Positions 22,340-24,805 of a stretch of DNA of 32,000 nucleotides are shown here, piece by piece. The notes under the pieces were generated by a model, which was not told where the DNA came from, ran no database searches, and was given only the letters and a program-made list of their open reading frames with translations. Numbering within the stretch: the first letter of the stretch is position 1; the number at the start of each line of letters is the position of its first letter. The DNA comes from Fibrobacteria bacterium (GTDB lineage Bacteria > Fibrobacterota > Fibrobacteria > UBA11236 > JADFYW01), in contig JBNKOC010000032.1 of the NCBI GenBank assembly GCA_050294405.1, positions 61,677 to 93,676 on the forward strand, written 5' to 3'. The position numbers and the translations under genes were made by a program.

Positions 22340-23341
22340 TTAATTCAATAAAGCGTGTTCTTGCTCAAACCAATTCAAATCTTTATTCAGAATAGTATTC
22401 GGCTTTATTGTTTTTTTATCCTTCAATTTTTTTTTATATAAAACTTTATAATAACAGTTTAATTGCTCAAATTTATTTGGGAGTATTTGTCTAACATACC
22501 CAATCTTCCCCAAAAGTCTTTGGGTATCTTTTTGTGTAATAGATCCGCTTTGCTTATGCTTACCGACCATCTTCATTATTTCATAATAATGTTTGTTTGG
22601 TATTAACAACTCTTTTTCTGGGCCGATGATAGGTCCAGTAACTGTTTTATACTTCTTTTTTGAAAAATATTTTGTTTTTTTCTTTTTTATATTTAGCCCA
22701 GCTCTTTTCAATTTGTTATCAATCAACAAATGAAAATCTTTTGATATAGGATTGTTAGTTGAAAAAGTCATATCATCAACGTATAGCGAAAAAAGCATTT
22801 GCCTGTCTTTCGCTTCTTTTGATATTTTATTAAAAAGGTTTGAATGTGTCCAGTAGGCTAAAGTTTGGCTCAAATGGCTACCTGTTGGGATGTGATCTGA
22901 ATAGCATGTAAGGTTTGCCAACAACCATGCCACATCATCACTCATTTTAAACTGATAGCGAAAAAGCCTGAACACGTGCTCCTTTTTACAGTTTGTATAA
23001 AAGCTTTCAATGTCAGTCGCCAACATGTAACTATTACTTACATGATATTTTGCGTTATCAATACTAGACACCCCTTTTTTCCCTGAAAACAAATACTCTG
23101 GTGTCTGAATTTTCATCATCAATTGTTGTAATCGAAAGTGGATTTTTTTTCTTAGGTGTATTGGCTCTTGGACTTCTCTAGTCTTAGCACCTTTCTTCGC
23201 ATCAAAAACTCTGTAAAAATTTGTGTCCGTTAGCGATGCAAGCTCTCTTACCTCTATTTTCAATATTTGACATAACCTTCTTTTATTAGAAAGCTTATAT
23301 AAAGGGCTGGAAGTAATTGGATATAATTTATGCCGTTGCAC
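22340..23341 (-). CDS. Retron-type reverse transcriptase (stand-alone RT domain, no fused effector domain)
   Basis: RT palm motifs: YRVFDAKKGAKTREVQEP (motifs 1-2), LATDIESFY (catalytic Asp), IPTGSHLSQ, and YVDD (aa 187-190, nt 22772-22783). It also has the NAxxH (IDNAKYH) and VTG (KTVTGPIIG) signatures I associate with retron RTs. There is no maturase, endonuclease or other domain. The GTG start lies 14 nt inside the 3' end of the upstream HTH gene. Confidence 0.8.
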   Translation of the reverse strand: MQRHKLYPITSSPLYKLSNKRRLCQILKIEVRELASLTDTNFYRVFDAKKGAKTREVQEPIHLRKKIHFRLQQLMMKIQTPEYLFSGKKGVSSIDNAKYHVSNSYMLATDIESFYTNCKKEHVFRLFRYQFKMSDDVAWLLANLTCYSDHIPTGSHLSQTLAYWTHSNLFNKISKEAKDRQMLFSLYVDDMTFSTNNPISKDFHLLIDNKLKRAGLNIKKKKTKYFSKKKYKTVTGPIIGPEKELLIPNKHYYEIMKMVGKHKQSGSITQKDTQRLLGKIGYVRQILPNKFEQLNCYYKVLYKKKLKDKKTIKPNTILNKDLNWFEQEHALLN

Positions 23342-23630
23342 TTTCTATCTTTTGTAGAAATTGTATTGTTTTCTTTCGGACAAGATCTTTAAATTTTCGC
23401 TTACCTTTATCAGCTTCTAAATCTTCTGCAAAAAACAAAATCGAAGAAGGTGTTGTTTTAAATATTTTAGCGTACTTTCGTATTAACTCCAAAGAGGGTT
23501 CCTTTTTCCCGTTTTCAATCTCTGACAGATAACTAGGGGATATACTCAAATCAGCCGCTAAGTCGTAAGATTTAATGTCATGAAATTTTCTAATTAATCT
23601 AAGTGCTTCATTTACCATAGTTATAATCAT
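23328..23630 (-). CDS. XRE-family helix-turn-helix protein, translationally coupled to the RT
   Basis: Classic XRE HTH: LRLIRKFHDIKSYDLAADLSISPSYLSEIENGKKEPSLELIRKYAKIF. 100 aa with a basic C-terminal tail. Overlaps the RT start by 14 nt. Confidence 0.8.
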   Translation of the reverse strand: MIITMVNEALRLIRKFHDIKSYDLAADLSISPSYLSEIENGKKEPSLELIRKYAKIFKTTPSSILFFAEDLEADKGKRKFKDLVRKKTIQFLQKIESATA

Positions 23631-23651
23631 TGAGTTAAAAAAAATAGGAAG

Positions 23652-23792
23652 CTAGTCGCCAAAAACCCAGATGAACAGTCTAACCAAAAAAAGAATTACC
23701 TTGATAATTACAAGTCTCCATATTTTTCGTTGACTTTTTTTCTTTTCAGCAACAGGACTACGGGCTAATAGGTTAATGTGTTTAATAATCAT
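23652..23792 (-). CDS. Unannotated 46-aa peptide with a basic N-terminus and one C-terminal TM helix (below the ORF-track size cut-off)
   Basis: Hand translation gives MIIKHINLLARSPVAEKKKSQRKIWRLVIIKVILFLVRLFIWVFGD*. The ATG at 23792 is preceded by AAGGAG (23798-23803) with a 5-nt spacer. The stop lies 21 nt upstream of the HTH ATG on the same strand. Confidence 0.5.
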   Translation of the reverse strand: MIIKHINLLARSPVAEKKKSQRKIWRLVIIKVILFLVRLFIWVFGD

Positions 23793-23866
23793 TTTTTCTC
23801 CTTTCCAGACTTGGGTTACCTACACGAGACATTCGCACAGGCCTAATTCAAGTCTCTCACAAGAAA

Positions 23867-24091
23867 GGTCCGTACCGTAATCCTATTCACCTCCTATTTG
23901 TTTCGCCACCGCTCTCACAGCGGTGGCATGAAATGATTGCGGAAGGGGTTTATTCAAAAGTTAAGTAGCCAATCTACCAACGGAAGGAATCAACCCTACC
24001 TCTGCAAAAAAATTGAGCATTACCCAGAAAGTAAAACTCACAGGCTTCCGCCCACTTTAGCTTTTCAGCTTTGTGAATTACGGAACCTATC
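23867..24091 (-). ncRNA. Candidate structured non-coding RNA (retron msr/msd-like leader) upstream of the peptide-HTH-RT genes
   Basis: There is no credible ORF. The 5' segment GATAGGTTCCGTAATTCAC (24091->24073) is complementary to GTGAATAGGATTACGGTACGGACC (23890->23867) over 6+5+3 bp, interrupted by bulges. Internal hairpins: AGCT-GAAA-AGCT (24059-24070); GGGTTGATTC/GAATAAACCC (23946-23996); GCCACCGC/GCGGTGGC (23905-23927). It begins at the predicted transcription start. Confidence 0.4.
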
Positions 24092-24100
24092 AACAACATG

Positions 24101-24129
24101 AATATAAGATCATATTCAATTTTTTGCAA
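24101..24129 (-). promoter_or_regulatory. Sigma70-like promoter driving the leader-peptide-HTH-RT unit
   Basis: On the minus strand: TTGCAA (24129->24124), a 17-nt spacer, then TATATT (24106->24101). The predicted start near 24092-24094 coincides with the 5' inverted-repeat arm of the leader. Promoter rules in this phylum may differ from E. coli. Confidence 0.4.
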
Positions 24130-24143
24130 ATAATATTTGCAAA
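24123..24143. promoter_or_regulatory. Perfect palindrome (9-bp arms, 3-bp spacer) overlapping the -35 element; candidate operator for the XRE HTH protein
   Basis: TTTGCAAAT-aat-ATTTGCAAA read directly from the sequence. The promoter-proximal arm (24123-24131) contains the -35 TTGCAA hexamer. Confidence 0.45.
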
Positions 24144-24377
24144 TAGCGAATTTATTTTTGGGTAATCAAGGGCACGGCGTGCTTCGCACATGGTCACGGG
24201 CTCGAACTGCGTGTGAGCATGGCTGGACGGATCTGTTTTCTACGCGGTATGGGAAAGACCCAGGATACCTGGCGAAGCGATAGTGTAAAGTAAGACGCAG
24301 GGAGCTTTGCTTTCAAAGCGGCCGGATTGCTTCACCCTTTTTCATGGCCTTAGCGCGAAGGTGGGGTATCTTGGGAC

Positions 24378-24805
24378 TTAACTTTCCTCGGTAGATTTTC
24401 TCTCCAGTCTTGCGGGGTGGCTTTTGGTGTGTACTTCCATAGCCTGTACGTATCCTATATCAGCTCCGCCTTCAAGCATATGAATGGCACAGCTATGGCG
24501 AAGTAAATGGCAAGCCCCTATTTTTTTGCGTGCCGGATTCTTAGATATGTCGCATTATTATATCGACAAGATGCCCGGCACTAAGTATTCCCCTAAGACA
24601 ATTATAAACAAATGGCCTTCCCCGAGTATTTTAACTAGCCTTGGTGATTCCCTAAGAAATTTTTCCACCCAGAACTGCTCCCGGGGTCCAAGGAGTGTTG
24701 GAGCTGAATTTAAAATGAATTAAATTTGACTTTCCATTATCAACTTTAGGTGTGACAACTTCCCAAAAAAAGTTTTTTTTAAAACAACAATTTCAACCCT
24801 AAATT
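24378..24805 (-). pseudogene. Decayed tyrosine recombinase/integrase (frameshifts, stops and an internal deletion removing the catalytic Tyr region)
   Basis: Minus-strand translation fragments: FRVEIVVLKKNFFWEVVTPKVDNGKSNL (box I-like, with Arg); PREQFWVEKFLRESPRLV...HLFI; KNPARKKIGACHLLRHSCAIHMLEGGADIGYVQAM (HxLRHS box II); and EVHTKSHPA*. VQAM joins directly to EVHTKSHPA, so the LGH...IYTH segment carrying the Tyr nucleophile is missing. Two in-frame stops and at least one frameshift separate the fragments. The upper boundary is fuzzy. Confidence 0.6.

Follow-up and report, generated by a model that had tools for sequence, protein, structure and literature searches.

The structured leader of a Type VI retron locus: probable msr-msd arm of a hybrid RNA that runs through a small protein gene

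An earlier note had marked positions 23867–24091 of the window (the whole 32,000-nucleotide stretch of DNA analyzed) as a candidate msr/msd-like non-coding RNA with paired a1/a2 ends, and the locus raises the question of what kind of RNA its minus strand specifies and where this RNA ends. We conclude, with a probability of about 0.88 for the identity of the element, that the marked stretch is the msr-msd arm, i.e., the structured non-coding 5′ part, of the hybrid RNA (hyRNA) of a Type VI retron, the class being taken as in the classification of Mestre et al. 2020 and PADLOC Retron_VI. A Type VI retron is a bacterial anti-phage system, in which a part of the RNA is copied into DNA by reverse transcriptase (RT). 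Type VI hyRNA systems were first described in 2025–2026 (bioRxiv 10.1101/2025.10.22.683967; bioRxiv 10.64898/2026.04.27.721009). The locus is a further representative of this recently described kind and leaves the knowledge of that kind unchanged.

The minus strand carried, in this order, a promoter, the structured leader, a gene of a 46-aa small protein (SP), a gene of a Cro/C1-type HTH protein and the RT gene. The RT (22340–23341) matched PADLOC RT_VI (3.8e-82, 273.7 bits, profile positions 1–278 of 279), with the next class at 5.8e-38, as well as Pfam RVT_1; the best 25 PADLOC matches were all retron RT classes, with RT_VI far ahead. Its YVDD motif was invariant in the RT alignment. Read from a GTG codon, the RT consists of 333 aa and overlaps the HTH gene by 14 nt, while 307 aa are annotated in the source record. 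The HTH protein (23328–23630, 100 aa; PADLOC HTH_VI, 4.6e-30; Pfam HTH_3, 3.7e-12) was encoded together with the RT in most of 138 related loci. The SP gene (23652–23792), preceded by the Shine–Dalgarno sequence (SD) GGAAAGGAG, was called in the source record; the N-terminal half of its product is basic, and the C-terminal helix is hydrophobic. The protein could be aligned with its counterparts in relatives, the alignment showing RLF-type motifs and an invariant W; it is predicted to be a toxic effector by analogy with the SPs of Retron-Vpa2 and Sen3, the toxicity of which was demonstrated (bioRxiv 10.1101/2025.10.22.683967; bioRxiv 10.64898/2026.04.27.721009). The order SP-HTH-RT with an SD-bearing small ORF was found in essentially all of ~100 related loci. 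The closest relative of the RT outside its own genome was only ~50% identical, and no Vibrio match was among those found; therefore, the experimental systems (Vibrio, Salmonella) are distant from this one.

The sigma-70-like promoter TTGCAA-17 nt-TATATT proposed in the earlier note (24101–24129) was found with its hexamers at 24129–24124 and 24106–24101, and the start of the transcript is predicted near 24094. The match alone was not beyond chance (3 sites in the promoter scan vs. 2.0 ± 1.4 in shuffles); TTGCA/TTGAC-17-TATATT was present at the same place in relatives. An operator-like palindrome TTCGCTATTTGCAAA (24136–24150) was located 6 nt upstream of the −35 hexamer and overlapped two copies of TTTGCAAATA (24123–24132 and 24136–24145). 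The corresponding TTCGC-N5-GCGAA pattern, with up to one mismatch, preceded the leader in 41 of 66 non-redundant Type VI loci, compared to 7 matches in a total of 65 kb of control sequence. We infer that the palindrome is a candidate binding site of the HTH protein.

All the features listed for the leader in the earlier note were recovered on the minus strand by sequence inspection, repeat search, and folding, and they go beyond chance, since the same positions in homologous loci carry them with different sequences. The 5′ arm, a1 (GATAGGTTCCGTAATTCAC, 24091→24073), comprises an outer part, UCCGUA (24084–24079), and an inner conserved motif, AUUCAC (24078–24073). The 3′ arm, a2 (23867–23890), comprises inner GUGAAU (23890–23885) and outer UACGGA (23874–23869) or the first copy, UUACGG (23880–23875). 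As claimed, the two arms were able to pair (24077–24086 with 23872–23881, 10 nt at 90%). The thermodynamic check suggested for the leader was positive: the minimum free energy (MFE) fold of the isolated 228-nt piece (24094–23867) had its ends closed by a 13-bp stem (24087–24075 with 23883–23867), with an energy of −77.3 kcal/mol and z = −4.17; 0 of 200 shuffles folded as well. Pairing had been allowed to either copy of a tandem TACGG; both can indeed pair, but the homologous partner is the second copy (UCCGUA 24084–24079 with UACGGA 23874–23869), because the 3′ arm of relatives sits immediately 5′ of the anti-SD tract.

Covariation in related loci, also suggested earlier as a check, was obtained for the outer a1:a2 helix and for three hairpins described below (GC-rich, H2, and H3), but not for the inner a1:a2 helix. 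In position-anchored windows from 15 lineages, the outer helix scored 12.1 for self pairs and 9.1 ± 0.76 for permuted ones (p about 1e-4), and slid controls gave p = 0.33 and 0.77. The inner motifs, UUCRC/GYGAA, were conserved but gave no lineage-specific signal; an A·C mismatch was present in this helix in three lineages. The lineage-specific a1:a2 signal appeared only with position-anchored windows: duplex energies in wide windows (45 nt × about 25 nt) did not separate self from cross pairs (z = −0.3). The register of the helix differed between lineages. In the duplex-energy test, no signal was found for pairing of a1 with the SD region or with the region after IR2, the distal inverted repeat described below. 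The first G past a1 (24069, 3 nt after it) is the candidate priming (branching) G; a G 1–4 nt past the a1 motif was found in 12 of 12 lineages having a UUCRC-type motif. In canonical retrons, a branching G immediately 3′ of a1 primes the cDNA via a 2′-5′ link.

The AGCU-GAAA-AGCU hairpin of the earlier note (H1, 24059–24070), belonging to the msr part, was present in the fold, and a small hairpin occupied its position in 9 of 13 lineages, with differing stems. It was followed by a GGGC-GGAA-GCCU hairpin (H2, 24040–24055), a conserved GUGAG motif, and an 11-bp imperfect hairpin (H3, 24014–24040), the 5′ arm of which begins within this motif. In the alignment of relatives plus the window, H2 and H3 were 78.7% paired vs. 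66.6%, and 10 of 12 pairs were compensatory. The 9-bp stem with one mismatch noticed before (23996–23987 with 23955–23946) turned out to be a part of a long imperfect hairpin of ~70 nt in the variable region (23937–24007), which is a candidate for the main msd template. Relatives had a single long hairpin of 25–141 nt at this position, and the sequences were unrelated. A 15-nt direct repeat with one copy at the 5′ end and the other in the long hairpin (24080–24094 and 23980–23994, 80% identical) was not conserved in relatives and probably arose by chance.

The GC-rich hairpin GCCACCGC/GCGGTGGC, reported earlier at 23905–23927, was confirmed and extends from 8 to 9–10 bp (23904–23928). A hairpin at this position was significant in 92% of 61 non-redundant loci; 89.6% of cells were paired vs. 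56.5% in shuffles, and compensatory changes were found in 7 of 7 modelled pairs. Its loop bears the first copy of a direct repeat, UGUGAGAG (23919–23912), and the second copy (23854–23861) is located at the entrance of the riboregulator stem, beside the anti-SD tract. This is the octamer that the earlier note had read on the plus strand as CTCTCACA at 23912–23919 and 23854–23861, and it represents the known direct-repeat pair of Type VI hyRNA, corresponding to the 7-nt direct repeats of Zhang et al. (bioRxiv 10.1101/2025.10.22.683967). Among the 61 loci, the loop repeat recurred at the riboregulator in a lineage-specific manner, the longest shared word being 6.3 nt for self and 4.0 nt for cross comparisons.

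Covariance models built from relatives only recognized the window in two places: 23849–23931 (27.1 bits, E = 2.5e-6) and 24007–24091 (25.6 bits, E = 0.0067 in 461 kb). No Rfam family (release 15) reached its gathering score in the window, and at E up to 10, there were only two weak matches, both on the opposite strand. MAFFT with RNAalifold gave no consensus structure for the 3′ module of relatives, owing to excessive sequence divergence and to hairpins lying out of register; landmark-anchored alignment-free tests and covariance-model realignment were used instead. The msr/msd-like nature of the RNA and its a1/a2 geometry were thus upheld by the adjacent retron RT, the homology of the leader, the covarying hairpins, the complementarity of the arms in 15 lineages, and the G after a1.

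The 3′ end of the RNA, placed by the earlier note at 23867, had to be revised: the structured unit runs on through SP to an inverted repeat (23642–23652) and a U tract. The first repeat, IR1 (AAAUAGGAGGU, 23889–23899), pairs beyond the SP stop codon with the second, IR2 (GCUUCCUAUUU), forming 11 bp (23889–23899 with 23642–23652). The first base of IR2 (23652–23642) is also the final base of the SP stop codon, and IR2 together with its U tract occupies 23637–23652 (U8 at 23644–23637); we infer a terminator-like geometry for this site. IR1:IR2 was found in nearly all of the 61 loci and gave the strongest covariation in the locus, with duplex energies of −14.9 kcal/mol for self and −7.3 kcal/mol for cross-species pairs (z = −3.7). 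In 17 of 17 ensembles, it took most of the pairing mass of IR1. Across the 61 loci, the 12-nt tail past IR2 was U-rich (6.7 T vs. 3.5 expected), and IR2 began no more than 13 nt from the SP stop in 69% of them and no more than 3 nt in most of the clade of the window. Folding of an isolated fragment had offered a local partner of IR1, UCAUUUC (23936–23930); it showed no covariation (p = 0.6 and 0.36) and was rejected.

Because the covarying helix joins 23889–23899 to 23642–23652, the predicted unit is about 458 nt long, from 24094 to about 23637, both ends being predictions. It includes the msr-msd arm, the riboregulator, the SP coding sequence, the 3′ inverted repeat, and the U tract; its fold had z = −4.56, and its length is in line with the ~470-nt hyRNA of Vpa2 (bioRxiv 10.1101/2025.10.22.683967). 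In the full-length ensemble, IR1:IR2 won and a1 paired elsewhere; no nested fold can hold both IR1:IR2 and a1:a2. IR1:IR2 crosses a1:a2; therefore, the two helices form either a pseudoknot or alternative states. The words pseudoknot, terminator, and operator were absent from the text of both Type VI preprints (word search).

This architecture bears directly on the alternative that the leader is a self-contained canonical msr-msd RNA of ~225 nt ending at 23867, yielding an antitoxin msDNA of the Ec86 type, with SP and HTH as ordinary separate genes. Similarly to Retron-Eco1/Ec86, the window has paired a1/a2, a G soon after a1, small msr hairpins followed by a long msd hairpin, and an RNA encoded next to a retron RT; the ends-paired fold of the isolated 228-nt piece and the covarying outer a1:a2 helix speak for the same. 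However, IR1 is part of the arm but pairs with IR2 on the far side of SP, so that the RNA runs past a2 into a protein-coding gene and a second helix crosses a1/a2. The conserved second repeat and the anti-SD tract also lie 3′ of 23867, and no terminator-like site was found after this position in a scan of the window. Moreover, the SP and HTH genes stand between the RNA and the RT, which is not the canonical arrangement. In Vpa2 and Sen3, RNA-seq coverage continues through SP (bioRxiv 10.1101/2025.10.22.683967; bioRxiv 10.64898/2026.04.27.721009), and the msDNA of Vpa2, the one tested Type VI case of this logic, activates the toxin instead of neutralizing it (bioRxiv 10.1101/2025.10.22.683967). 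We consider a canonical RNA very unlikely here, and the hybrid RNA is the preferred interpretation.

In the hybrid RNA, the segment following a2 appears to control SP translation. The anti-SD tract CCUUUCU (23862–23868) pairs with the SD of SP: in silico, the probability of pairing of 23806–23800 with 23868–23862 was about 0.67, with a further 0.30 in a shifted register. CCUUYC was conserved among relatives. The riboregulator (23798–23855) consists of a stem (23855–23849 with 23815–23809) with an inner hairpin, followed by the SD (23806–23798). When the second repeat was blocked in silico, the accessibility of the SD rose modestly, from 0.32 to 0.53.

By homology to Retron-Vpa2, the RT would copy the long hairpin and the GC-rich hairpin into single-stranded DNA, in which the copy of the loop repeat would be complementary to the second repeat. 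The bound cDNA would open the riboregulator, the toxic SP would be translated, and the infected cell would stop growing; the HTH protein would hold the system in check. By analogy, we give about even odds to such a mechanism, in which cDNA relieves the translational repression of the SP toxin, operating at this locus.

If the leader were instead only a cis-regulatory 5′ region, i.e., a riboregulator of SP, HTH, and RT translation without a template for reverse transcription in this lineage, the sequestration of the SD by the anti-SD tract would be expected, and this option would agree with the six Type VI retrons that gave no detectable ssDNA under standard expression. The conservation of the msr-like hairpins and of the a1/a2 closure, the long variable hairpin typical of msd, and the catalytic YVDD motif retained by the RT make it hardly probable, the more so as cDNA was later detected for Vpa2 and Sen3, and the covariation between the loop repeat and the riboregulator repeat is difficult to account for unless a complementary copy is made.

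The earlier note had also offered a DRT2-like alternative, to be checked by concatenating sub-segments in search of a stop-free frame; in such a system, rolling-circle copying of a sub-segment would create a concatemeric ORF. In DRT2, rolling-circle cDNA creates a neo-gene, and a structured ncRNA likewise lies upstream of a defense RT. An open frame of 54 codons was present on the cDNA-sense strand (23937–24101), and many in-frame sub-segments remained stop-free when concatenated; since any piece taken in frame from an open frame will pass, this outcome is not informative and lends no support to the alternative. Chance alone would give open frames of ~55 codons among six frames, and a conserved concatemer frame was found in no relative, the region being the most variable in sequence and length. 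In contrast to DRT2, full-length profile scoring assigns the RT to retron type VI by a wide margin over other classes, and the architecture agrees with retron hyRNA element by element, so a DRT2-like template is extremely improbable. A chance origin of the hairpins and complementarities in AT-rich intergenic DNA can be dismissed: the number of promoter-like matches did not exceed shuffles, and 9% of cross-species partners equalled the a1:a2 helix of the window when this helix was considered by itself, but relatives-only models find the region, several helices covary, and fold z-scores are below −4.

Regarding the published systems, the hybrid RNA of the window most closely follows the description of Retron-Vpa2, the Type VI retron of Vibrio parahaemolyticus, for which Zhang et al. 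reported the hyRNA, the 7-nt direct repeats, and msDNA-dependent SP translation (bioRxiv 10.1101/2025.10.22.683967). The likeness was drawn from that description. Both have the gene order SP-HTH-RT; one structured RNA of ~460–470 nt (predicted for the window) with the msr-msd arm and the SP coding sequence; an inverted repeat past SP that anneals back into the first arm; a 7–8-nt direct repeat in the loop of the msd hairpin and again in the riboregulator; and a sequestered SD. The GC-rich hairpin of the window (8 + 7 + 8 = 23 nt) has the same length as the essential 23-nt 5′ stem-loop of Vpa2 msDNA, and the Vpa2 cDNA maps to a long stem-loop (bioRxiv 10.1101/2025.10.22.683967). In contrast, the RT of the window is distant from that of Vpa2, the host appears to be different, and the sequences of the repeats and helices are unrelated.

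For Sen3, a Type VI retron of the cl2075 lineage, Garcia-Rodriguez et al. described the ncRNA, IR1-IR2, and an extended transcript (bioRxiv 10.64898/2026.04.27.721009). As in the window, the Sen3 ncRNA is located no more than about 300 nt from the SP start, has terminal inverted repeats and a long variable internal stem-loop, and belongs to a structured RNA extending across SP, with IR1 upstream and IR2 just past the SP stop codon. The window differs from Sen3 in that its ribosome-binding site has an internal anti-SD as its partner and the predicted transcript carries no stem-loop ahead of a1. The two characterized retrons also differ from each other: Vpa2 relies on translational control, whereas Sen3 produces cDNA constitutively and uses the HTH protein as an antitoxin; its ssDNA accumulates debranched (bioRxiv 10.64898/2026.04.27.721009). 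Constitutive cDNA and post-translational control are thus features of Sen3. While the authors of the Sen3 study found no significant IR1-IR2 covariation within their lineage (bioRxiv 10.64898/2026.04.27.721009), in our broader set it was the strongest signal.

The crossing helices a1:a2 and IR1:IR2 may, on positional grounds, form a gate that couples reverse transcription to translation, a suggestion that we regard as tentative and rather unlikely. IR1 is located immediately 5′ of a2, sharing 2 nt with it, at the place where the template of a canonical retron would begin. IR1 is held by IR2, which begins with the final base of the SP stop codon; a ribosome that terminates there would therefore unwind IR1:IR2. 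The start of the template and the inner a1:a2 helix would thereby become available for priming; as cDNA accumulated, the riboregulator would be opened further, and such positive feedback would produce an all-or-none toxin switch. The IR1:IR2 helix with its U tract would, in addition, set the 3′ end of the hyRNA.

The window thus contains a clean, well-delimited Type VI retron whose lineage is remote from both of the systems studied. The hybrid-RNA design, which combines a template arm with a repeat-based riboregulator, a toxin gene, and a repeat that closes the unit, holds at about 35–50% RT identity and in many phyla. For annotation, leaders of Type VI retrons are recognizable from sequence though Rfam contains no model for them, and the relatives-only models could seed one. 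Both the crossing of a1:a2 with IR1:IR2 and the conserved TTCGC-N5-GCGAA palindrome upstream of the promoter provide leads on how the system stays off.

Beyond the palindrome, the GC-rich stretch 24160–24480, which has no ORF, gave no tRNA, Rfam match, or fold signal on either strand. A neighboring gene encodes a T9SS-type protein, which suggests a host of the FCB group.

The locus was encoded on the minus strand. Downstream of the leader lay a 46-aa ORF for a small protein (SP, a predicted toxin; 23792-23652) with a strong Shine-Dalgarno sequence (SD), followed by an HTH protein of 100 aa (23630-23328; PADLOC HTH_VI, 4.6e-30) with no visible SD and a reverse transcriptase (RT) of 333 aa (23341-22340; PADLOC RT_VI, 3.8e-82; next best class, 5.8e-38); Pfam agreed with both of the latter assignments. 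Type VI retrons have this SP-HTH-RT order. The SP ORF was called as a gene in the record GCA_050293925.1 (contig JBNKNQ010000016.1). The RT start codon (23263-23341) was ambiguous: the source record gives 307 aa, versus 333 aa for the GTG reading from 23341. The longer protein can be aligned with its relatives starting at residue 1, and its gene has a 14-nt overlap with the HTH gene; RT and HTH genes overlap in related loci as well. The SP (23785-23793) and HTH (23623-23631) genes share their first 9 nt, AAUGAUUAU (Met-Ile-Ile), which may be due to chance.

The minus strand had all leader elements of the earlier note at the positions given there: the 5' segment GATAGGTTCCGTAATTCAC (a1, 24091->24073), the AGCU-GAAA-AGCU hairpin (H1, 24070-24059), a stem of 9 bp with a single mismatch (23996-23987 x 23955-23946), the GC hairpin (23905-23927), and both copies of an octamer (23854-23861 and 23912-23919). 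The complementarity of a1 to 23890-23867 (a2, the 3' arm of the terminal repeat) was recovered by a repeat search as 24077-24086 x 23872-23881 (10 nt, 90%), and the isolated leader (24094-23867) folded at -77.3 kcal/mol (z = -4.17) with a 13-bp terminal stem. The TTGCAA-17-TATATT promoter-like site was present at 24129-24101; with 3 promoter-like matches versus 2.0 +/- 1.4 in shuffles, the match by itself does not exceed chance. The 5' end of the leader, GUUGAUAGGUUCCGU (24080-24094), was 80% identical to a part of the long hairpin, GUUGAUUCCUUCCGU (23980-23994); this repeat was not conserved in relatives and is therefore probably a chance one.

A 15-bp palindrome, TTCGC-N5-GCGAA (consensus TTCGCTATTAGCGAA), precedes the -35 hexamer of the retron promoter by a few bases. 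Of 66 non-redundant Type VI loci, 41 had it ahead of the leader, compared with 7 matches to control sequence totalling 65 kb. The window carries the copy TTCGCTATTTGCAAA on the minus strand (24150-24136), followed by a second TTTGCAAATA within 24123-24150. The palindrome is likely an operator for autoregulation by the HTH protein.

Anatomy, conservation, and covariation of the leader were evident in the comparison with related loci, 138 from genomes and metagenomes and 11 from exact-protein look-ups. Their RTs shared at most ~50% identity with that of the window; the HTH gene adjoined the RT gene in most loci, and in essentially all of them it was preceded by a small ORF that has an SD, encodes a hydrophobic tail, and could be aligned with the window SP. 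MAFFT with RNAalifold failed on the divergent leaders, so landmark-anchored tests and covariance models were used. The model of the 3' module, built from 14 relatives with the window left out and reaching from the GC hairpin to the second copy of the loop repeat, matched the window at 23849-23931 (27.1 bits, E = 2.5e-6). In the realigned set, 89.6% of GC hairpin cells were paired versus 56.5% in shuffles (0/500 as high), with compensatory changes in 7/7 pairs; slid controls reached 18-53%. The relatives-only model of the 5' part matched 24007-24091 (25.6 bits, E = 0.0067 in 461 kb), its 5' edge coinciding with the boundary drawn in the earlier note, and hairpins H2 (24055-24040) and H3 (24040-24014) had 78.7% of cells paired versus 66.6%, with compensatory changes in 10 of 12 pairs. 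Between H3 and the GC hairpin, the loci had a single imperfect hairpin of 25-141 nt (24007-23937 in the window), unrelated in sequence across lineages, which is what an msd would be expected to look like.

For the terminal a1:a2 pairing, wide windows gave true partners no advantage in duplex energy over those of other lineages (z = -0.3). When 12 nt ending at the UUCRC motif were set against 15 nt ending at the tract complementary to the SP SD (anti-SD), true partners scored 12.1 versus 9.08 +/- 0.76 for permuted ones (p ~1e-4), with duplex energies of 6.1 versus 3.9 kcal/mol (p ~1e-4); slid controls gave p = 0.33 and 0.77. This supports the a1/a2 geometry. The helices differed by lineage (UCCGUA:UACGGA, AAGUCG:CGACUU, ACUGG:CCAGU, GGGGA:UCCCC, AGAGGA:UCCUCU), and the inner helix (AUUCAC:GUGAAU in the window) consisted of conserved motifs with both A:U to G:C exchanges and A.C mismatches, giving no lineage-specific signal. 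A G followed the a1 motif after 1-4 nt in 12/12 lineages with a UUCRC-type motif. Since a2 in relatives abuts the anti-SD, the partner homologous to theirs is the second TACGG copy of the window.

Of all comparative signals in the locus, the strongest came from the helix between two inverted repeats, IR1 AAAUAGGAGGU (23899-23889) and IR2 GCUUCCUAUUU (23652-23642), which pair over 11 bp; IR2 starts on the final base of the SP stop codon. Own partners paired at -14.9 kcal/mol and cross partners at -7.3 kcal/mol (z = -3.7); for the median sequence no cross-species partner equalled its own. The helix recurred with unrelated sequences in nearly all of 61 loci, was highly probable in 17/17 full-length ensembles, and took most of the pairing mass of IR1. 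Because IR1 is positioned between a1 and a2, the a1:a2 and IR1:IR2 helices cross; they overlap by 2 nt and must be a pseudoknot or alternatives. IR2 runs into a U-rich tail (U8 in the window, where repeat and tail together span 23637-23652; 6.7 T in 12 nt versus 3.5 expected in the 61 loci). This geometry looks terminator-like and would set the RNA 3' end before the HTH gene, with a predicted length of ~458 nt. It is proposed that a ribosome terminating on SP would unwind the helix.

A significant hairpin was found just upstream of IR1 in 92% of the 61 non-redundant loci, and its loop motif recurred downstream: the longest shared word was 6.3 nt in self versus 4.0 nt in cross pairs, reaching at least 6 nt in 72% versus 7.6%. 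Both copies changed in parallel between lineages (GUGAGA, GCGCGA, GCGAGA, GGCAAG). The anti-SD CCUUUCU (23868-23862), downstream of a2, pairs with the SD (23806-23800) with a probability of ~0.67, to which a shifted register adds 0.30. When the second repeat was blocked in silico together with its flanks, SD accessibility rose from 0.32 to 0.53. A purely cis-regulatory leader would leave the msr/msd-like arm and the co-varying repeat unexplained. A stand-alone canonical msr-msd RNA ending at 23867, the unit drawn in the earlier note, has the a1/a2 and msr/msd layout in common with the window element and is contradicted by conserved elements continuing 3' of 23867. The DRT2-like template, also raised there, is contradicted by the RT class; the concatenation frame test was uninformative. 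Chance features are excluded by the comparative data.

Retron-Vpa2 produces a ~470-nt "hybrid RNA" of an msr-msd arm and the SP coding sequence, whose 3' end returns to anneal with the first arm. A direct repeat of 7 nt has one copy in an msd loop and the other in a riboregulator, and SP translation is derepressed by the msDNA, of which a 23-nt 5' stem-loop is an essential part (bioRxiv 10.1101/2025.10.22.683967, Zhang et al.). Retron-Sen3 ncRNA has terminal repeats, a long variable stem-loop, and IR1-IR2 pairing around SP; its ssDNA is constitutive and HTH control is post-translational (bioRxiv 10.64898/2026.04.27.721009, Garcia-Rodriguez et al.). Those features of a Type VI hybrid RNA that are testable in sequence were all found in the window element, whereas the stand-alone non-coding character of canonical retron RNAs was not. 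The GC hairpin has 23 nt, the same length as the essential stem-loop of Vpa2, and the crossing IR1:IR2 helix fits how the Vpa2 3' end is described ("wraps back" onto the first arm). Judged by sequence, the element is a Type VI retron hybrid RNA of a lineage distant from those studied; Rfam has no model for it. A word search of both preprints found no mention of helices that cross, of an IR2 adjoining the stop codon and leading into a U tract, or of the conserved palindrome (neither "operator" nor "palindrome" occurs), and these features are small additions to them.

By homology to Vpa2, the RT would copy the long hairpin and the GC hairpin (template roughly 23890-24010). The cDNA of the loop repeat would be complementary to the second repeat and, by binding there, open the SD-sequestering structure; the toxic SP would then be made, with the HTH protein restraining the system. 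We give such Vpa2-type logic about an even chance in this lineage, because Sen3 shows that a Type VI retron can instead be "armed" constitutively, with control exerted on the protein.

The G+C content of the cassette (22340-23800) was 28-37%, versus 43-49% in the neighboring housekeeping genes obg and trpS, which points to horizontal acquisition. Next to the cassette, the window had neither an integrase nor a tRNA gene. A GC-rich region (~51% G+C; 24160-24480) directly precedes the retron promoter, on the side facing an LRR protein that carries a T9SS sorting domain. It had no convincing ORF, tRNA, or Rfam match, and its fold z-scores were close to 0 on either strand; possibly, it is a remnant where the cassette ends.
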